A stretch of DNA of 64,000 nt from Candidatus Omnitrophota bacterium (GTDB taxonomy: Bacteria; Omnitrophota; Gorgyraeia; Duberdicusellales; 4484-171), in the NCBI GenBank assembly GCA_037146775.1, contig JBAWWL010000010.1, forward strand, positions 12,963-76,962, written 5' to 3'. Shown one piece after another: positions 4,631-54,023 of this stretch; position 1 is the first letter of the stretch, and every line of letters starts with the position of its first letter. Below the pieces are notes generated by a model, which worked only from the letters and a program-made list of their open reading frames with translations, was not told the DNA's origin and did not search any database. A program made the translations under genes and the position numbers.

Positions 4631-5128
4631 TTATTTCTTCTTTTTATATAAAACAGTATCGTCAAGAAACCACTTTTTATTGGATTTAATAGCCAATATA
4701 TCAGAAACCAGATAGATACCTTGTGCGATATCGTCTGTGTCGATATCCTTGATTTCGAGCGCTGTGTAGAGGCAGGTTGGAATGCAAGATTGATTGTTTC
4801 TACTTATGCAATAATCGCATTTAGAGTCAAAAAATTTTAAAAAATCTGCAAAAATGACGCCAAAAGGGCAAGCAATAGAACAGGTTTTGCATCCGGTACA
4901 AAGAAAACGCGCACGCTTAATAATACCTTTGTCGTCTCTTGAGAGTGCCTTATGATAACAAGAATTTACGCATGGTGCTTCTTCGCAGTGATGGCAAATT
5001 AATGAAAACGTTGCGAGTTCTCGTAAGGAAGTGATGCCGTTGTTTTGTGGATGGTAAATATAGCTGCATTTTACCACGCATTCCGGGCAGGCATCGCACT
5101 TGTCTAAGTCAATAAATAGTCGTTTCAT
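4631..5128 (-). CDS. 2x[4Fe-4S] ferredoxin subunit (EchF/HycB-like)
   Basis: Four Cys clusters (CDACPECVVKC, CHHCEEAPCVNSC, CTGCKTCSIACP, CDYCISRNNQSCIPTC). Confidence 0.7.
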   Translation of the reverse strand: MKRLFIDLDKCDACPECVVKCSYIYHPQNNGITSLRELATFSLICHHCEEAPCVNSCYHKALSRDDKGIIKRARFLCTGCKTCSIACPFGVIFADFLKFFDSKCDYCISRNNQSCIPTCLYTALEIKDIDTDDIAQGIYLVSDILAIKSNKKWFLDDTVLYKKKK

Positions 5129-5226
5129 ATTGTTTCAGATGTTAGTGTTGAGATGCCAGGCATCAGAGGCCAGATGTCTGATTCGAGAAAAAAATTTATC
5201 TGTTCCCCGGCTCTTGTTTTATATCT

Positions 5227-5359
5227 TCTATCCTCTGTCTTCTGCCTTTTACCCTCTGACTTCTGTCTTCTGATCTCTGTCTCTTGTCCCCTGACTTTTA
5301 TTTTCTATCTTCTGATTTCTGTCCTCTGTCTTCTGACCTCTGATGTCTGACTTCTGTTC
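5227..5359. repeat. Degenerate heptanucleotide tandem array, about 19 units of TCTGNCT
   Basis: Direct reading: tctgtct tctgcct … tctgacc tctgatg tctgact tctgttc. The array abuts the TGA stop of the HydG-like gene. A second copy of the same array lies at 53908..54019. Confidence 0.85.
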
Positions 5360-6181
5360 TCAGTCCCAAATATCCTCTATCTCTTTGATGTCTTCAAACC
5401 GGAATACCGGACCATCTTTGCAAATATAAAATTTGCCTAAACGACAATGGCCGCATTTGCCCAAACCGCAGCTCATATTTTTTTCCATCGAGAGATAAAT
5501 ATTAGTAGGTTGCAATCCTAAATCAAGCAGTTTGAGTGTTGCAAATTTCATCATAATTGGCGGGCCGCAAACTATACCAATCGCTTCGGGTAAGCATAGC
5601 GGCAGCTTATCCAAGAGCGTGGTAACGATGCCCACGTTCCCTTTCCAGGAGTTATCGGCTCGGTCAACAGTGAGCCGGAATTCGACATTATTTTGTTTTT
5701 TGAATTCATCGAGTTGATATTTATATACGATATCTACAGGGCTGCGCGCGCCGTAGCAGATAATAATTTTCTTAAAATCGGTTATACGCGCATAAAGCGC
5801 GTAAATTAAAGAACGCAGTGGCGCCAGTCCAACCCCGCCGCCAACGATGACCAATTCTTTTCCCTTGAAGCTATCAAGCGGGTACCCGTTGCCGTAGGGG
5901 CCGCGTACGCCAAAAATATCGCCTGGTTTAGCTTTGTGGAATAGCTCGGTTACCTTACCCACCCGCATAATGGTTACCTCGAATCCGTCTTTACGGTTAG
6001 GATTGGATGAGGGAGTAAACGGAGCTTCCCCCACCCCGGGGTACGTTAATTCGATAAATTGTCCGGTTTCAAAAGAAAAATTCTCCTCCGGCTTAAAAAT
6101 AAAAGTTTTAATGGTCGGTGTTTCTTCTATAATTTTGGTAACCGTAACTTTCTCGGGCAGATAAATTTGTTTAGTTTTCAT
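5360..6181 (-). CDS. FAD/NAD(P)-binding oxidoreductase with C-terminal 2Fe-2S (sulfhydrogenase gamma HydG / AsrB / PyrK-like)
   Basis: Ferredoxin-NADP-reductase-like fold signatures (GGGVGLAPL). C-terminal CGLGKCGHCRLG…C motif as in PyrK/HydG. Confidence 0.7.
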   Translation of the reverse strand: MKTKQIYLPEKVTVTKIIEETPTIKTFIFKPEENFSFETGQFIELTYPGVGEAPFTPSSNPNRKDGFEVTIMRVGKVTELFHKAKPGDIFGVRGPYGNGYPLDSFKGKELVIVGGGVGLAPLRSLIYALYARITDFKKIIICYGARSPVDIVYKYQLDEFKKQNNVEFRLTVDRADNSWKGNVGIVTTLLDKLPLCLPEAIGIVCGPPIMMKFATLKLLDLGLQPTNIYLSMEKNMSCGLGKCGHCRLGKFYICKDGPVFRFEDIKEIEDIWD

Positions 6182-7197
6182 GCGGGTGTTTTTATTGCGA
6201 GTTGCTTAAATACTTCGCGTATGTCAATTTTTGCCGGACAGCTTTCGATACAGCGGCCACAACCGGTACAGGCATACGTTTTTATATTATCCGGAAAGAA
6301 CTCAAATTTTTTAACATAACGGTTACGAAGGCGTTGTTGGCGTAATTTAAGCGGATTGGCTCCTCCGGCTACGCGGGTAAAATTTTTGTATTGGCAACCA
6401 TCCCATATTTTTGCGCGTACATATGTTGTCGTGTGCCCTGAATCACACAAAAGAAAGCAATGACAGGTAGGGCAATTCATAATGCAGGCTCCACACTCGA
6501 CACAGCGTAATGCTTCCTGGGGCCAGACAGCGTTCTCGTATCCATCTTTTACAAGGTTATAGAGCGCATCTTTGTCGGCAAGTTGTTGAGATTTCAGATA
6601 GGCTGTTAGATTCTTTACGATATCTTCTCTTTTTTTGGTTTGCTCAAGTATATGGTTATCGTCGACAGCTTTAAATAAGTCTTTATTATTTGTGATTGCG
6701 AGCTCTCCTTTCGGTGAGCCGACCATAACAATATATCCGCCTGATACCGGTGATAGGTTAAAATCAAAAGATTTTTCCGGATACGGATTGATTCCCAGTG
6801 CCAAGCAAAAACAGACATTTTTATAACCGGTGCAGTCACTGGAAATAATGAAGTTATTATTGCGCATTGTTTGGTAGTGAGTATCTGTGGTTCCTTCCAG
6901 AAAGACAAAGTCGTGAATAGCCAGTGAAGCGAGATCGCAGTTCTTTGCTCCGACAATACAGAAAGGTTTCTTTATTTTAGAATTATGTGAAAAATATGTG
7001 TGTATTGATTCGCGTGAGGGGGTAAAAAATTGGCGCAGAGAACTTATCGGCCGGTATTTGTTAAATTCGAAAACACCGCTATAGCTTTGCCAGCAGTATT
7101 CTGTTTCTCCGGTTGGAGTGTATACGTGGTATTGCCGGGAAAAGTTTTCTAAAAGCTTGGTAAAATTATTTTTTTGAATAAAGTAATTTTGTTTCAC
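6178..7197 (-). CDS. 4Fe-4S cluster protein, sulfhydrogenase beta HydB / AsrA-like
   Basis: CVECGACIMNCPTCHC and CTGCGRCIESCP motifs. 339 aa. Translationally coupled to the HydG-like gene. Confidence 0.65.
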   Translation of the reverse strand: MKQNYFIQKNNFTKLLENFSRQYHVYTPTGETEYCWQSYSGVFEFNKYRPISSLRQFFTPSRESIHTYFSHNSKIKKPFCIVGAKNCDLASLAIHDFVFLEGTTDTHYQTMRNNNFIISSDCTGYKNVCFCLALGINPYPEKSFDFNLSPVSGGYIVMVGSPKGELAITNNKDLFKAVDDNHILEQTKKREDIVKNLTAYLKSQQLADKDALYNLVKDGYENAVWPQEALRCVECGACIMNCPTCHCFLLCDSGHTTTYVRAKIWDGCQYKNFTRVAGGANPLKLRQQRLRNRYVKKFEFFPDNIKTYACTGCGRCIESCPAKIDIREVFKQLAIKTPA

Positions 7198-7275: not shown

Positions 7276-8184
7276 TCAAGGATTATCGCGACCTATTTTG
7301 TCAAAACCGGATAAAAAATCTCGCATGGCTGACAGGCATTCGTTAGTTTTTTCTAGAAAATGGGTATGTGAAGCATCCTCTATAATGCGCAGTATTGAAC
7401 CCGGAAGCATAGTTTGATAATAGGCGGTTGTTACGGGGCGTGCTTCATCGTAGCGTCCAGCCAGGAATAATGTAGGAATATTTATCTTGTGCAGGTCGTG
7501 TGCGCGTTCGTAATCTTTGAGTGTTCCGGTGCAGGTAAATTCGCTCGGTCCCCACATTTTGGTGTAGATAGTTGAATTTATTCTTGCAAAGGTTTTTTGC
7601 AAACAGTCAGGCCAAGGTTCTAATCGGCACACATGAAGTTTGTAGTACAACATTACTGCGTCTTGGTATTCTTTAGAATCGTAAATGCCCCGCTCCTCTG
7701 CTACAGCGACGGCCGATTGAGCATGCGCGGGTAGCTGTCTAAGGTATGCGCGTTGGTCGGCTATCCAGCGGGAAACGCTTAAGCACGGCCCGGAAAGTAT
7801 CATACTGGCGATACCAGAAGGTTGTTTCGTTAAGATGTATTCGATCGCGAGCATTGTTCCCCATGATGTGCCAAGGAGGTGTATAGTTTGTAATTTAAGG
7901 GCGGTACGTATTTGGGAAAGTTCTTCGACGGATCTTTCTAGTGTCCAGAGGCTAGGATCCTGTGGTTGTTCGGAATTGCCGCAACCTAGTTGGTCGTAAA
8001 AGATAACTGGCCGATCGTTACTTAATGTGTGGAGAGGCTCAAGGTAATCATGGGTAGCACCCGGTCCTCCGTGCAGCATCAAGAGAGGGGTTTTCTTTTT
8101 GTTGCGTCCTATAATTTTATACCATGCTTTGCCGCCCGTGACTGGTATAAAATCTTCGACCGTGTCGTTGCGGAAATCGTCCAC
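7276..8184 (-). CDS. Proline iminopeptidase / alpha-beta hydrolase (S33 family)
   Basis: HGGPGATHDY and GTSWGTMLA (GxSxG nucleophile elbow) motifs. 302 aa. Confidence 0.7.
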   Translation of the reverse strand: MDDFRNDTVEDFIPVTGGKAWYKIIGRNKKKTPLLMLHGGPGATHDYLEPLHTLSNDRPVIFYDQLGCGNSEQPQDPSLWTLERSVEELSQIRTALKLQTIHLLGTSWGTMLAIEYILTKQPSGIASMILSGPCLSVSRWIADQRAYLRQLPAHAQSAVAVAEERGIYDSKEYQDAVMLYYKLHVCRLEPWPDCLQKTFARINSTIYTKMWGPSEFTCTGTLKDYERAHDLHKINIPTLFLAGRYDEARPVTTAYYQTMLPGSILRIIEDASHTHFLEKTNECLSAMRDFLSGFDKIGRDNP

Positions 8185-14267: not shown

Positions 14268-14581
14268 TTTTACCCCCTTCTTGGTGTGGCGTATTACATA
14301 ATTCGAAATAGTACGTATTTTACAGCGTAATAGCTTTTTTTCAATAATTTAGGTATAAGGTCATAAACAATAGCTCAATGTTTTTAAGGATAAATAGCAT
14401 AAAATATACGATCTTCTAATATTATCAATGGTTTTAGTTGTTTTTTGCAGAAAAATATGTTACTCTTAAATTGATGACAATCTGGTTTCTGATAAAGGTA
14501 AACCAAGGGTAACCTTGGGGCGCAAAGCTACCTATCCCGATATAACCGGGAAAGAGGGGTTACCAGAAAAACCATGTTTTT

Positions 14582-17830: not shown

Positions 17831-18636
17831 TAATCACGTACGTTGGAAATTAGTACTTCTCCTTGTGGCGAAAAGGAAACATCAATTTCTTTAACTAATA
17901 CGTCACCTCCTTCTAGGTCAAAATTAAAAAAGAGCGTGTAATCGCCAGGCGAGATATCTTTTGGTAAGGAGATTTTAATTTCTGTCTTATTCCCTGGCAG
18001 AGTGTAAAGCTCAGGCGTTGTCCCTCTATCAGCTACTATACCCTTTGCATCCATAATATAGTAAGAACCTTTAGCGTAAAGGAAAGTTTCGCCGCCGTTA
18101 GTGAAGCTTCCAGTGAATGAGCGGCCTTTAGCCGCTAAAGCGTCAAAAACAGCTTTCTTTTTACCCGGTTTTGGTTCAATAATTATTAATGAACCTACTC
18201 GGCCTAAAATCATAACAGTTTTACCCTCCTGGTCAAACCCCTTCCCGATAGTAGTTTCGAAGAAAAGAACGCCGCAATGTACTTTCGTAAAGCTTGCGTT
18301 TGGTTTTAGATTGAGTTTAATTTCTTTACGTTCACGGGCAGCTAGATTTATTTCTTGCGGTGCGAAGCTAATCCATGAAGCAAGAGAAGTGTCGGTTGTA
18401 CCAGGAGAGTAAAACTCTTTTGTTCCGTCGAAAGGAGAAACATATACGAAATCTTCCAGATATATGCGCACGGCAACCGGAGTATCAAGCGTATTTTCTA
18501 CATTGATGGTATCGCTATAGGTATCAGTTACGGCAAGATAAGTGTGTATTTTGGGGTTATCAATTCTCAGTGCAAAAGCTGATACCGGTAGCATTGTAAT
18601 AATAGCGCATAACGTAATAAACCTGAAAAATAGCAT
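17830..18636 (-). CDS. Secreted periplasmic protein, possible pilus chaperone-like
   Basis: Signal peptide. Alternating beta-strand pattern (DTINVENTLDTPVAVRIYLE) reminiscent of the PapD-family N-domain. Tightly coupled to flanking genes. Confidence 0.35.
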   Translation of the reverse strand: MLFFRFITLCAIITMLPVSAFALRIDNPKIHTYLAVTDTYSDTINVENTLDTPVAVRIYLEDFVYVSPFDGTKEFYSPGTTDTSLASWISFAPQEINLAARERKEIKLNLKPNASFTKVHCGVLFFETTIGKGFDQEGKTVMILGRVGSLIIIEPKPGKKKAVFDALAAKGRSFTGSFTNGGETFLYAKGSYYIMDAKGIVADRGTTPELYTLPGNKTEIKISLPKDISPGDYTLFFNFDLEGGDVLVKEIDVSFSPQGEVLISNVRD

Positions 18637-18667
18637 TATTTCTCCGTTTTTCCTCTTGGCATAAAAA

Positions 18668-19291
18668 CTATTGTAATACTACTGAAAATGTAACTGTGCC
18701 GTTATATGTTCCGGCTGGTTTATCGGTTATCGGCGCAGAGCCAGCTGGTTCCCCTGGTGCTCCGGTAGCTAATCCGTAATATGCGCGCACAATTCTGGGT
18801 ACACCCGCATTTCCATTATAAATTACTTTGTTGGTCGCAAAAGCAAGTGATGTGGCAGTGAAACTATCTCCGGCCGGCATAGCCCCTTGAGCAATGCCAT
18901 TAACCGCGTCTTGCGATTTATAGTCGGGTGTCATCATAAGGTTATTGTTAAGATCGCTTCCGCCGGTGGTTGTAAAGCCGTTGCAAGTTTGTTGCAGCCT
19001 ATATGCGCTGCCGGCAGTTCTTCCGATCAGAAATACCGTAAAGTATTTTCCAGCAAGATAGATACCATTTGTTTGATCGTAAGTAAGTGTGCCAAAATCC
19101 ATGCTTGTTACTGCCGCTGATCCTGCTCCGTATGGGTCAACTCCTGGTGGTGCTGATTGTATCCAATAGGTTAATTCAAGTCCTGAAGGTACGATTGCGC
19201 GTACGGGGACACTTGCAGTACTGACAGCAAATGCCGGGTTGCTTAAGGCAACCATTAATGTTGCGACGATTAGGGTTATTATACGTCTCAT
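18668..19291 (-). CDS. Secreted Gly/Thr/Ala-rich fimbrial subunit-like protein (SCPU / Csu-pilin-like)
   Basis: Signal peptide. Small-residue-rich composition. C-terminal …YNGTVTFSVVLQ beta-strand resembling spore-coat-protein-U / archaic chaperone-usher pilins. Confidence 0.4.
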   Translation of the reverse strand: MRRIITLIVATLMVALSNPAFAVSTASVPVRAIVPSGLELTYWIQSAPPGVDPYGAGSAAVTSMDFGTLTYDQTNGIYLAGKYFTVFLIGRTAGSAYRLQQTCNGFTTTGGSDLNNNLMMTPDYKSQDAVNGIAQGAMPAGDSFTATSLAFATNKVIYNGNAGVPRIVRAYYGLATGAPGEPAGSAPITDKPAGTYNGTVTFSVVLQ

Positions 19292-45901: not shown

Positions 45902-46020
45902 TTTAAAAATAAACGATCGAGCGTCGATTCCGCTCCGAGAGTAAGAGACGGTTGATAAATTGATGTAACGGGCGATGCTTAATTCGTGCTACGTATTTAT
46001 TAATGTTTATTGATTTATCT

Positions 46021-46088
46021 GACATCTGAAGGTCTGACCCCTAGTAGATTTTGTGACATCTGAAGGTCTGACCCCTAGTAGATTTTGG
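46021..46088. repeat. Perfect tandem duplication, 2 x 34 bp (gacatctgaaggtctgacccctagtagattttg)
   Basis: Copy 2 contains the last three codons and the stop codon (cta on plus) of gene 46075..46755. Copy 1 lies immediately 3' of it. Confidence 0.85.
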
Positions 46089-48419: not shown

Positions 48420-48978
48420 TATCGAAGAAAAAAGTTACTCCTCCCAAGTACATATTCGAGTCTATACCGCTGTTAGGGTGTTTAATGCTGGCATTGGAAA
48501 GATGGCGGTAGCGGTATTCGAGATTGAGTGCGACATTATCCTTGATAAAATAGTGTAATCCCGCTCCTCCCTGAGGAAGAAAGTTGTATTGCGTAGACTG
48601 CTCAAGCGTGTGTTGGCTCATGTAGAGCATACCTAGCCCGCCTTTTACGTATGGCTGTATTTTGGCATTAAGCGGTAGAACATATTTGACTAGAAAATTA
48701 GAACCAGCTTCGACGTTGCTGTTTGGCGAGTTAATGGTATTGATGAATGGTTCGAGAACAAAATCGAAACGTCCGGGGAACTTAAGCCCGATCTTACCCA
48801 AGAGCGGTTTGCCGTCAAAATCGAAGGCAACGAGTAAAGGTACTCCCTGGTATTTTTTCTGGGTATGGTCGAGATTACCGTTTAAAAAACCGGTGGTTAC
48901 TTCGATAGCATCAAGTGCGTGTGCAAACGGCAGAAAACAAAACAAGAAAACCATAACTAACAATACATTTTTTTTCAT
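48394..48978 (-). CDS. Outer-membrane beta-barrel protein (PagL-like acyloxyacyl hydrolase / OmpW-like)
   Basis: Signal peptide, alternating aromatic pattern, and a C-terminal …GGVTFFF terminus typical of OM beta-barrels. Confidence 0.4.
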   Translation of the reverse strand: MKKNVLLVMVFLFCFLPFAHALDAIEVTTGFLNGNLDHTQKKYQGVPLLVAFDFDGKPLLGKIGLKFPGRFDFVLEPFINTINSPNSNVEAGSNFLVKYVLPLNAKIQPYVKGGLGMLYMSQHTLEQSTQYNFLPQGGAGLHYFIKDNVALNLEYRYRHLSNASIKHPNSGIDSNMYLGGVTFFFDNAKKSKDN

Positions 48979-51623: not shown

Positions 51624-54023
51624 TCAATTGTCTTTCCACAATCCTTTATAGGTAAGGTATGCCTTTTTTAATGTACGTAAAAAAGGAGATTGTTTACCTT
51701 CGCCTTGGCCTACAACGCCAAGCCATTCTTCATGCATATAACCATCCAGAAAAGGCCCCGTAAAAAGGCCTTTGCGGTCATGATGCCATGGTTTATAGGA
51801 TTTCCACCACTCATCCGTCCATTCGAACACGAATCCGCCGATTGCATTTCCTGTGCCATATCCGCTTGAGTTGCAGGCAATATCCAGCCAGGCGTTGCGA
51901 TGGTATTCAGCCTGAAAAGATTCGGATTCTTCCATGGAATATCCTTGTGCATAAGAAGGTGCGCCATATTCGGTAATCATTGCGGCCCTACTCGATGTAT
52001 TTTTGACTTCATCCCAAAAATCAAAGAATCCGTATTTTCCTCGGTAACAGTTTGTTCCAAACACATCAATATCGGGACAGTTTTTAGCAAAAACATCCAG
52101 GAACAGCGCATCCCCTGACGCAATACCAACCGGCCGCTTAAGGGGGTCGAGTTGTTTTATTAACTTTGCTGCTTCGTTTGCGAATTTAAAAAAACTTTCC
52201 GGCTTTTTGTCGGCATTACACGCAACGCCGTACACATTCTCGTTTCCTAAAAGCCACATGATGATACCGGGTTCGTCCTTGAATTCGGTAACCATTTCCC
52301 GTACACTTGAGAGCATATTTTCTTGATGAGCAGGATCGTCGTAGTCAGTTCCCGGTTCCCATGGCGCTTTACTTCCGAGGGCGTATTTTCCCAAAAAATC
52401 GCCCAATACTGTATATATACCATATTTTTGGTACATTTGTCGAATAAGTTCTTTATTTATTTTAAATGGCTGGTGATATAGCCGTACGCAGTTAACTCCC
52501 ATATTTTTCATGAGATAAAAGTCACCGACTGTCTTTTCCCCTGCGTCTTGTATGCCGTTTGCGTTTTCGTCCACCCAGGTTTCGTAGGGAGCGTCGATGG
52601 TATTGTTATTGTTTACATCCTGGATACTCCAGTTTTGTTGAGTGCCTTTATCGGGAGATTCGCCAACACGGGTAGGGGCGTAAGTGACTCCTTTTATGAT
52701 AAATGGTTTTCCGTCAACCAGAAATTGCCAATCCCCGTTTTCGTAACGCACTATCTTTACTTTTTCTCCGCCTCTGGTTTCAACGATTTTACCCGGTTTC
52801 CGGTATTTTTCCTGCGCAGGGCATAGATTGGTCTTTAAGCATAACTTTTGCAGTATGTTTGCTTTAACTAATTTCCCCGGATTGACTATAAAAATATCGT
52901 TTCGTATGTCATTATCAAAGCCATTTATTACCTTTATCGAAGCGCCCTCCAACCTCAAGCCTAATTCCGGATTTTCCCGCAAGAGATGTTTGATCCGGTA
53001 CAGGCTTGCTTTGCCGATATACCAAGGCGTGTGCCAGTATGTCCATCCGTACGCAGTCGGAAAATGGACCAATACCGCATAGTAAGCTTTAATGGCTTGC
53101 TTTGTGAGTCCGCTGCGTTCCAGAATGTCGGCAATAAAAAATTGTTTTACCCCCCACGGTTCGGGGGCAATATTCCATTTATAAAATGCGGTCTTAAAAT
53201 CGCGACTATTTAAAATATTCCAGTGTTCGACAGTGCCTATTTCTTTTTTTATTTTAATGAATTCAGGGTCAAATTTAAGTGAGCTGGAATTTGGGTAAAT
53301 TCCTTCGCCTACGGCGTTCGATAAACCGATTTGGTCTTTAATTATGTACTGGTATTCTTTGGTCCCGGCACCTTTAAATTCGCCATACTTGGTATAATCA
53401 ACCGGAAAGATACCCGGGTCATATAGCTCAATAAGTATTGATTTTTCTAAAACGTTTGGTGCCTCAGTGTCGGTTCCTTTGATCTCGTCCAGGACTTTTT
53501 CTGCAGTCTCTTTTATGGACCAGAAAGTTCCGCGTGAAGGGTCGAATGCTTGCGCGTAGGGGTATTTTTTTGTCACTTCTTCAAGTATTTTTGCCGCCTC
53601 ATCAATTTTATTTTCGTCACGCAGGCTTTCGCCTTTGATAAAGTAACTTATCGCTACATCATCCATTATTTTGAAGGCGGTTTCCTCATTTTGAGGAGGG
53701 AATTTTTGGAGTGTTGCGGCAAGTTTATCGGCTTCGGCTGAGAACTTGAAAATGCATTCGTCGGTAACCTTATACACTTCTTCGTATTTCTTTTCTCCTT
53801 GCAGTGCCCATGCCTTTTTTACATATTCGGAAGAGTCTTCTTGTTGCGCAAAACAGACCAAAGACCAAAAACTAAAGATTAAAGACAAAAAACAGACAAC
53901 AGAAAAATCTGCCTTTTGGCCTCTGCCCTCTGACTTCTGACTTCTGCCTTCTGCCTTCTGTCCTCTGGCTTCTGTCTTCTGCCTTCTGTCCTCTGACCTC
54001 TGACCTCTGTCCTCTGTCTTCAT
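51624..54023 (-). CDS. Membrane-anchored clan GH-A glycoside hydrolase with N-terminal heptad-repeat (RGQKSEG)n extension
   Basis: The ATG overlaps the stop of the upstream permease (ATGA). N-terminus is MKTEDRGQRSEDRRQKTEARGQKAEGRSQKSEGRGQKAD, followed by a hydrophobic anchor FSVVCFLSLIFSFWSLVCFA. C-terminal domain has VNCVRLY, WLLGNENVY and ITEYG. Confidence 0.55.
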   Translation of the reverse strand: MKTEDRGQRSEDRRQKTEARGQKAEGRSQKSEGRGQKADFSVVCFLSLIFSFWSLVCFAQQEDSSEYVKKAWALQGEKKYEEVYKVTDECIFKFSAEADKLAATLQKFPPQNEETAFKIMDDVAISYFIKGESLRDENKIDEAAKILEEVTKKYPYAQAFDPSRGTFWSIKETAEKVLDEIKGTDTEAPNVLEKSILIELYDPGIFPVDYTKYGEFKGAGTKEYQYIIKDQIGLSNAVGEGIYPNSSSLKFDPEFIKIKKEIGTVEHWNILNSRDFKTAFYKWNIAPEPWGVKQFFIADILERSGLTKQAIKAYYAVLVHFPTAYGWTYWHTPWYIGKASLYRIKHLLRENPELGLRLEGASIKVINGFDNDIRNDIFIVNPGKLVKANILQKLCLKTNLCPAQEKYRKPGKIVETRGGEKVKIVRYENGDWQFLVDGKPFIIKGVTYAPTRVGESPDKGTQQNWSIQDVNNNNTIDAPYETWVDENANGIQDAGEKTVGDFYLMKNMGVNCVRLYHQPFKINKELIRQMYQKYGIYTVLGDFLGKYALGSKAPWEPGTDYDDPAHQENMLSSVREMVTEFKDEPGIIMWLLGNENVYGVACNADKKPESFFKFANEAAKLIKQLDPLKRPVGIASGDALFLDVFAKNCPDIDVFGTNCYRGKYGFFDFWDEVKNTSSRAAMITEYGAPSYAQGYSMEESESFQAEYHRNAWLDIACNSSGYGTGNAIGGFVFEWTDEWWKSYKPWHHDRKGLFTGPFLDGYMHEEWLGVVGQGEGKQSPFLRTLKKAYLTYKGLWKDN
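53908..54019. repeat. Degenerate heptanucleotide tandem array, about 16 units of TCTGNCT (second copy, inside CDS)
   Basis: tctgcct … tctgacc tctgacc tctgtcc tctgtct. Same unit and phase as the 5227..5359 array. Encodes the 7-aa repeats of the GH N-terminus. Confidence 0.85.

Follow-up and report, generated by a model that had tools for sequence, protein, structure and literature searches.

Among long simple repeats, heptanucleotides are the most frequent type in many bacteria, and polymerase slippage has been proposed as their cause (Mrazek, 2007, as summarized in PMC4679880 and PMC4692102). In the cyanobacteria Anabaena variabilis, Nostoc PCC 7120, N. punctiforme and Lyngbya majuscula, short tandemly repeated repetitive (STRR) sequences with 7 bp units form predicted hairpins between hupS and hupL; their function was given as unknown, and transcript stabilization or translational coupling was proposed (PMC2670836). 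What such heptanucleotide-repeat families do has been an unsettled question since the first cyanobacterial description. Here, we describe a repeat of this type in a 64,000-nucleotide stretch of DNA (the window) from a Candidatus Omnitrophota bacterium (contig JBAWWL010000010.1, positions 12,963 to 76,962), in which an array of CAGARGN units lies between a HydG-like gene and a ferredoxin gene of a hydrogenase operon.

Three further systems are relevant. In Haemophilus influenzae the (ATCTTTC)n hairpin in the 5' untranslated region (5'-UTR) of hmw1A and hmw2A is cleaved by RNase III, raising expression (PMC12721329). Direct repeats of TAACTGA occur in marine Beggiatoaceae and in some Cyanobacteria and Bacteroidetes (MacGregor, 2015; PMC4679880). 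Intergenic heptamer repeats have also been described in Xanthomonas, with the unit GGGAATC, and in Nostoc, with the unit GGGGA(T/C)T (Rehm, 2015; PMC4692102).

On balance, we favour the reading that the Omnitrophota array forms the 5' arm of a heptanucleotide-repeat element, palindromic and now decayed, that is the counterpart in this phylum of the cyanobacterial STRRs and fills a junction that was ancestrally tight and translationally coupled. The array would be untranslated, would carry no recoding signal and would today be too degenerate to switch by slippage at high frequency. The element is ordinary in kind, a new Omnitrophota member, by its architecture, of the STRR-like class of heptanucleotide repeats; no description of such repeats in Omnitrophota (Omnitrophica) was found in the literature library searched, an absence which is not proof of novelty. 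As to its role, we infer that the spacer may form an intercistronic RNA hairpin.

Judged by architecture, the hupS–hupL hairpin is the closest analogue. As in the cyanobacteria, 7-nt tandem units lie in a spacer between hydrogenase-operon genes for which co-transcription and a hairpin are predicted, and several loci per genome carry arrays (two CAGARGN loci in 64 kb here). The tandem array exceeds chance and is intergenic, its family recurs and the lineage is enriched in heptamers, as expected of STRR-type repeats. The units are not identical to the cyanobacterial ones and there is no evidence of common descent, so that the element is best regarded as an analogue and not as a family member. 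The host is an omnitrophote with a group 4 hydrogenase, whereas STRRs lie in Cyanobacteria beside a group 2a uptake enzyme; the unit is CAGARGN, whereas classic STRR units are CCCCAGT, TTGGTCA and CAACAGT. In addition, the repeats here are far more degenerate, and the loop, which is very large and rich in purines, is closed by an inverted array that is short and decayed.

The hmw hairpin is the best mechanistic precedent, offering an experimentally shown route from a hairpin to expression of the downstream gene. In both cases a heptamer array in the transcript supplies one side of a long hairpin, the other side being a complementary region further downstream (by prediction in our case). The hmw repeats are perfect, have proven phase variation and lie in a 5'-UTR behind a promoter, whereas those described here are decayed and intercistronic; the hmw 5' arm is pyrimidine-rich, the opposite of the arm order seen here. 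The TAACTGA repeats, for which a post-transcriptional role has been proposed (PMC4679880), are likewise intergenic heptamer arrays of patchy phylogenetic distribution, with close relatives often having short repeat-free spacers at the same junction and with Shine–Dalgarno sites rare in the repeat-bearing spacers. They differ in their unit, and our element has 19 units running from a stop codon together with an inverted arm. The GGGAATC and GGGGA(T/C)T repeats are also over-represented in intergenic DNA, including within an operon (pecE–pecF), with some inverted pairs and with length and sequence that vary between close relatives. Those units, however, contain G-tracts able to form G-quadruplexes, which CAGARGN lacks.

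Anatomy and predicted fold of the spacer

The minus strand, on which the operon lies, carries 19 degenerate 7-nt units with the consensus CAGARGN at 5224–5361. Tandem Repeats Finder (TRF) placed the array at 5224–5357/5361 with a period of 7, 19.1 copies and 66% matches, and also described it at period 21. On this strand the units read CAGAAGT CAGACAT CAGAGGT CAGAAGA CAGAGGA and so on; positions 1–4 and 6 are mostly conserved and positions 5 and 7 are variable. The array is 80% purine, with a lag-7 identity of 0.64, and its perfect tracts reach at most 1.9 units. When up to two mismatches are allowed, the two-unit pattern TCTGNCTTCTGNCT has 29 matches in the window compared with 2.8 expected from shuffles, a number that none of 100 shuffles reached. 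All but four of these matches fall in this first array or in the region of a second array at 53883–54019.

The TGA of the HydG-like gene occupies 5360–5362 and the first full unit begins 3 nt downstream. The frame that follows the stop encodes EQKSDIRGQKTEDRNQKIENKSQGTRDRDQKTEVRG and then terminates; it comprises 36 codons and starts EQKSDIRGQK. Two assemblies of the spacer were compared, the NCBI contig of the metagenome-assembled genome (MAG) and Logan contigs from SRR12676968 located by way of the flanking proteins. In the latter, independent assembly the spacer is 100% identical and the array is therefore not the artefact of a single assembler. An array of about 19 heptamers abutting a stop codon, as the original prediction had it, is thus confirmed by TRF, by the shuffles and by an independent assembly, and the peptide that it read beyond the stop matches this frame exactly. 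Its description of the spacer as about 230 bp and almost entirely repeat was correct as to length (231 nt) but not as to extent, with the direct array filling about 60%.

The part absent from that description is a set of eight inverted units. The whole intergenic spacer (5129–5359, from the TGA at 5360–5362 to the ATG at 5126–5128) is one palindromic element, consisting of the direct array, a 35-nt loop and eight in-phase inverted units. Within the inverted TCTGNNN array at 5133–5188, five of the eight units start with TCT in register, which none of 20,000 shuffles equalled, and lag-7 identity in this arm is 0.47 compared with 0.15–0.34 at other lags. Arms of 40 nt at 5151–5190 and 5316–5355 are 73% complementary. 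The features of the locus, all on the minus strand, are as follows.

5224–5359, 5' arm of 19 CAGARGN heptamers on the mRNA strand (TCTGNCY on the plus strand), from TRF, shuffles and a table of units
5189–5223, loop region TATAAAACAAGAGCCGGGGAACAGATAAATTTTTT with a T run at its end; its CAGA–(T run)–TCT junction is like the loops of the second element and of a related locus, L083
5133–5188, 3' arm, TCTCGAA TCAGACA TCTGGCC TCTGATG CCTGGCA TCTCAAC ACTAACA TCTGAAA, stopping 4 nt before the ferredoxin ATG
5360–6181, HydG/AsrB-like FAD/NAD(P)-binding Fe–S subunit of 273 amino acids (Pfam NAD_binding_1, FAD_binding_6 and DHODB_Fe-S_bind)
6178–7197, Fer4_22 protein, HydB/AsrA-like
4631–5128, 2x[4Fe-4S] ferredoxin-like gene (Pfam Fer4_11), the first of a membrane-bound group-4 [NiFe]-hydrogenase block

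On the mRNA strand the spacer has a predicted fold of -50.8 kcal/mol (z = -2.5). In the minimum-energy fold, units 2–4 pair with inverted units and about 150 nt of purine-rich RNA is looped out. Within a polycistronic mRNA the first units after the stop would pair with the inverted units beside the ferredoxin start, leaving about 20 unpaired nucleotides from stop to start. Complementarity between the repeat arm and a downstream region (73% over the 40-nt arms) is the arrangement that underlies the hmw mechanism and is present here by prediction. We infer that replication slippage and block duplication gave rise to the arrays and lengthened them, and that the insertion would be tolerated where such a hairpin folds it out of the way. 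The hairpin may in addition serve as an intercistronic processing or stability site of the RNase III type, and such processing would uncouple the soluble HydB/G-like module from the membrane module. A structured spacer was one of four options originally put forward for the array, and the long hairpin predicted from the direct array and the inverted units makes it the best fit of the four.

Neither a sigma-70-like promoter nor an intrinsic terminator was found on the coding strand of the spacer, and no Shine–Dalgarno sequence was found before the ferredoxin ATG. The canonical AAGGAGG site is used elsewhere in the genome, for example before the ATG near 48976. A mini-ORF (open reading frame) of 12 codons, encoding MPGISTLTSETI before its stop, lies within the 3' arm (5125–5163, minus strand); its TGA overlaps the ferredoxin ATG (ATGA), an arrangement that may be due to chance or may be a coupling device.

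Other types of structure were considered. With Rfam 15 the spacer had no match at gathering score; a permissive search gave 16.9 and 13.8 bits against cut-offs of 60 and 53.5, and a known structured RNA family was rejected, these matches being sub-threshold noise. A G-quadruplex was rejected since the CAGARGN unit has no G-tracts, and H-DNA or a triplex was judged unlikely by inspection since a C or T breaks the purine run every 7 nt.

Beyond the ferredoxin gene, NuoH-, NuoB- and NuoC-like genes, a group-4 [NiFe] large-subunit (NuoD-like) gene and a NuoL-like gene follow, all on the minus strand, and all remaining operon junctions are of 5 nt or less or overlap. In relatives the operon goes on with Mbh/Mrp-type membrane subunits. 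A protein in an NCBI MAG of Candidatus Omnitrophota matches the HydG-like protein at 100% identity, and the next matches (about 80% identity) are also from Omnitrophota.

Junction turnover and distribution of the repeats

We examined 80 loci around HydG-like orthologues (given L numbers), the majority belonging to MAGs with an Omnitrophota label. The junction of the HydG-like and ferredoxin genes is 0–11 nt or overlapping in about 25 species. Eight loci (L003, L010, L011, L016, L019, L038, L063 and L070) have instead heptamer spacers of 48–170 nt with species-specific units, in most of which a direct run is followed by its inverted run. The hairpins predicted for these spacers span nearly the entire gap, with unpaired flanks that total roughly 8–20 nt. 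Turnover at the junction is fast even among the nearest relatives (79–82% identity): the gap is 1 nt in L004; 68 nt in L207, where a short purine heptamer run, now decayed, has CAGA-like units among its repeats; 148 nt in L208, with a different hairpin related to that of L003; and about 82 nt in L209, with GTCAAGG-like units. The HydG-like protein itself does not vary at its end, with 35 orthologues finishing at the same ...DIWD residue before a TAA, TAG or TGA. The element is dispensable and is not conserved in sequence, and the junction repeatedly accepts hairpin-forming heptamer arrays. A single conserved junction that is either tight or occupied by palindromes of unrelated units is a natural comparison set, with which the hairpins can be tested as tolerated insertions versus intercistronic regulators.

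The window and the related loci reveal an uncultured phylum, Omnitrophota, that is rich in heptanucleotide repeats. In 717 kb of Omnitrophota-labelled loci together with the window, a lag test gave 42 lag-7 segments compared with 0–7 at each other lag from 4 to 12, an excess of six-fold or more over every other period. The other loci (442 kb) gave 11 lag-7 segments compared with 1–9 at other lags. In the TRF results for the loci fetched and the window, periods 7 (36 rows), 14 (30) and 21 (13) dominate. Of the 53 lag-7 segments in all loci and the window, about 43 lie outside long ORFs, usually between co-directional genes. The units vary by genome (for example GCAAATG, AGCGTAA, TTTAGGA, GTACATA and GGACGTA), and in several genomes one unit is reused at several sites.

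Some individual loci are worth recording. L084, another Omnitrophota contig, contains more heptamer palindromes at 17848–17955 and 18636–19132, among them arrays of CTAAACN and of GTTTAGN that are separated by about 420 nt; the gene that they flank is small and has a weak Pfam match to the 23S rRNA intervening-sequence protein family. Two Omnitrophota MAGs, L030 and L033, have the units ACTCTGT, TTTAGGA and CAATACG in common at similar locus coordinates (about 5000 and 8020–8100), and this pair is suited to a study of array change between species.

A metagenome scan for three consecutive CAGARGN units returned at least 120 stretches (L087–L206), a count that records presence and not an excess over control heptamers. 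Among the matches listed, the arrays have 3–33 units and lie on contigs of 37–70% GC, and thus extend well beyond Omnitrophota; about a fifth have an inverted partner within 200 nt downstream. The purine-rich arm is the 5' arm in 56 of the 69 metagenome hairpins among these matches with a partner at 200 nt or less. Also among the matches listed, 24 of 101 arrays have the stop of an ORF on their own strand directly at their 5' end, compared with three in the mirror arrangement, ORF-based statistics being noisy in high-GC metagenome contigs. The same arm order holds for unrelated units at the orthologue loci and in the window, where 17 of 18 hairpins are purine-first (p = 1.4e-4); there the bias is one of A over T (17:2) and not of G over C (10:9). 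Since the elements are palindromic, the purine-first order holds on both strands.

Several ideas might account for the arm bias. Firstly, a pyrimidine-rich arm emerging first would invite Rho loading, which the purine-first order would avoid. Secondly, a U-rich arm beside starts that lack a Shine–Dalgarno sequence could bind ribosomal protein S1. Thirdly, there may be selection for a charged-then-hydrophobic order where an element is translated.

The second array

The window holds two members of one family, at 5133–5359 and 53855–54023, both of which are CAGARGN/TCTGNNN palindromes; besides these two elements, no strong heptamer-periodic spacer was found in the window, which covers 64 kb of this genome. 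The parts of the second member, both on the minus strand, are as follows.

53908–54023, an ATG and then 15–16 in-frame CAGARGN units, from TRF and the ORF, giving the putative n-region of the signal peptide of a 799-residue GH2/TPR protein
53855–53904, inverted U-rich arm (TCTGTTG TCTGTTT TTTGTCT ... TTGGTCT TTGGTCT), giving the putative h-region FSVVCFLSLIFSFWSLVCFA

TRF reported this array at period 7 with 16.3 copies and 82% matches, and its longest perfect tract is 2.9 units. The layout is that of the first element: here an ATG is followed by CAGARGN units, a CAGA–TTTTT–CTG loop and inverted U-rich units. The predicted RNA fold is -64.9 kcal/mol. In a comparison of strands, the sense fold is -58.7 kcal/mol compared with -28.0 kcal/mol for the antisense fold, and it is only where a heptamer element is coding that the sense strand is clearly favoured.

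The second array is probably translated, in a peptide that includes MKTEDRGQRSEDRR. Its ATG (54021–54023) and the TGA that ends the ABC permease gene upstream overlap as ATGA. This overlapping start is kept in L083, where the same element has seven direct and about nine inverted units, and also in L086, which at 89% identity is the closest relative and lacks a CAGA array. Ahead of the conserved mature N-terminus, two TTG codons within the hydrophobic stretch are the sole alternatives for an in-frame start, and the NCBI annotation is that of the 799-residue form. That the second array is translated had been claimed at the outset, and these three lines of inference support the claim well. In all orthologues a hydrophobic stretch ends with (C/S/V)(F/Y)A(Q/E) just before a conserved ...DSSEYV. 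The purine arm would thus probably encode the charged n-region, and the pyrimidine arm the hydrophobic h-region, of a predicted signal peptide. Strong seven-residue periodicity is present in the first 50 residues of 10 of 120 GH2/TPR orthologues, compared with 0–1 at other lags, and several of the periodic sequences have CAGARGN-type heptads such as EDRGQRT and SEVRGQR. Sites of related signal-peptide elements are 53855–54023 (minus strand) in the window, 10001–10125 in L083 and 10001–10086 in L084.

Rival origins and functions

Several observations weigh against a slippage-grown palindrome that acts as an intercistronic hairpin. Co-transcription, hairpin formation and any effect on expression are predictions. 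Slippage in situ does not by itself explain why one core is present at two loci of this genome and again in other genomes, why the core is fixed while positions 5 and 7 vary, or why the purine arm comes first. Many species have no spacer at all, so the operon can dispense with the element. The z-score of the fold (-2.5) is modest. The sense strand of the spacer folds no better than the antisense strand (-46.7 compared with -47.6 kcal/mol), and there is thus no G–U signature of selection on the RNA; across the orthologous spacers the comparison is mixed.

The first alternative is that the spacer is a copy of a dispersed, propagating palindrome of the REP/BIME or MITE (miniature inverted-repeat transposable element) type, inserted by a trans-acting enzyme or by recombination and not grown by slippage. 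We regard this as unlikely, although it would make sense of the same CAGARGN/T-rich loop/TCTGNNN plan at two window loci 49 kb apart and at the start of the GH2 gene in L083. The occurrence of CAGARGN arrays on contigs of 37–70% GC, about a fifth of them with inverted partners among the matches listed, points the same way, and the biases in arm order (17 of 18 and, among the matches listed, 56 of 69) and in stop abutment (24 compared with three among those matches) suggest more than random slippage. Against this, the number and the sequence of the units change from locus to locus. A common architecture and a CAGA–T(n)–TCTG loop are found in the two window copies, in L083 and in L084, but their flanks and unit counts differ. 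No conserved termini, target-site duplications or near-identical copies were seen, with no systematic search for termini made, and no transposase or RAYT was found linked, again with no systematic search. About 100 chance matches to the three-unit pattern are estimated for the metagenome collection, the matches listed being mostly longer arrays.

A broader proposal would make heptamer palindromes a class of their own that is actively spreading in Omnitrophota and in uncultured bacteria of other groups, and this too we consider doubtful. Such elements would have a fixed arm order on both strands, with the purine/A-rich arm 5' and the pyrimidine/T-rich arm 3', and would colonize stop-to-start junctions and the 5' ends of genes. 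On landing in frame behind a start they would build or replace signal peptides, the purine arm becoming the charged n-region and the pyrimidine arm the hydrophobic h-region. As the unit is 7 nt, export could then be switched on or off.

We consider it improbable that the array is a periodic RNA-binding platform, in which the NAG–N4 periodicity of (CAG–ARGN)n recruits an oligomeric RNA-binding protein or the ribosome. HutP recognizes NAG triplets spaced by 4 nt, and the candidates would be HutP- or TRAP-like proteins, CsrA, cold-shock proteins, ribosomal protein S1 or the 30S subunit via GAGG/AGGA motifs; the bound factor would govern how the ferredoxin and hydrogenase genes, which have no Shine–Dalgarno sequence of their own, are translated. 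The conserved CAGA.G core with variable positions 5 and 7 is consistent with such a platform, as are the Shine–Dalgarno-like tetramers (six in the first array and ten in the second) and the use of AAGGAGG elsewhere in the genome when the ferredoxin start has none. S1, Csp and CsrA have been proposed as binders of the TAACTGA heptamers (PMC4679880). However, completely different heptamers occupy the same junction in other Omnitrophota, so no conserved sequence-specific binder fits, the array lies 95–230 nt from the start codon and no candidate protein was identified.

A contingency repeat, phase-variable or acting as a rheostat, in which unit number tunes expression of the downstream hydrogenase genes, was another of the original options and deserves very little credence. 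Heptamer arrays do vary in 7-nt steps between Cyanothece 8801 and 8802 (PMC4679880), and the phase variation of the hmw 5'-UTR repeat (ATCTTTC)n is proven (PMC12721329). The related element has seven direct units in L083 compared with 15–16 in the window. The hmw arrays, however, have 13–17 perfect repeats (PMC12721329), whereas the first array is heavily decayed (1.9 perfect units at most and a lag-7 identity of 0.64) and the second reaches 2.9. Furthermore, the spacer is identical in two assemblies, and L084 and L085, from two JGI samples, are 99.99% identical with no indels across an eight-unit array of the related element. Contingency switching by the first array is unlikely.

There is hardly any case for the idea that an N-terminal module encoding a signal peptide was duplicated and left a remnant between the two genes, although the spacer is of the same family as the element that encodes the GH2/TPR n- and h-regions and has its layout of purine arm, T-rich loop and pyrimidine arm. 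The first array has no ATG, GTG or TTG, and stops break every sense frame. The ferredoxin is a cytoplasmic Fe–S protein whose start lies where orthologues have it. Sister species carry unrelated heptamer palindromes at the junction, and most lag-7 arrays of the lineage are intergenic. What the two loci have in common is a DNA repeat family, found also in intergenic DNA and in other genomes, and not a protein module, and as it was put this option finds no support.

Programmed readthrough or recoding of the UGA, which would add a 36-residue heptad tail to the HydG-like subunit, is unsupported and very improbable: the 36 open codons and the resemblance of their peptide to that of the second array are all that speak for it, an array of 80% purine has few stops in any sense frame (two, one and one in 45 codons) and from purine composition alone gives 36 open codons with P of about 0.2, and the 35 orthologues end at the same residue with no conserved extension, the next gene lying within 0–11 nt in about 25. 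The open frame that prompted this suggestion is an effect of composition.

There are two consequences for annotation. Arrays of this type have several open frames, and recoding or small ORFs are easily called in them by mistake. Those at some gene starts, in contrast, are probably translated as signal peptides.

Two minor observations in the window remain. A 34-nt direct repeat at 46012–46087 (2.2 copies, 95% identity), which reads (A)TCTACTAGGGGTCAGACCTTCAGATGTCA(C/G)A on the minus strand, has CAGA motifs 7–8 nt apart yet is not a heptamer array. A c-di-GMP-I riboswitch aptamer lies at 14487–14567 on the plus strand (Rfam RF01051), scoring 61.4 bits against a gathering score of 35.

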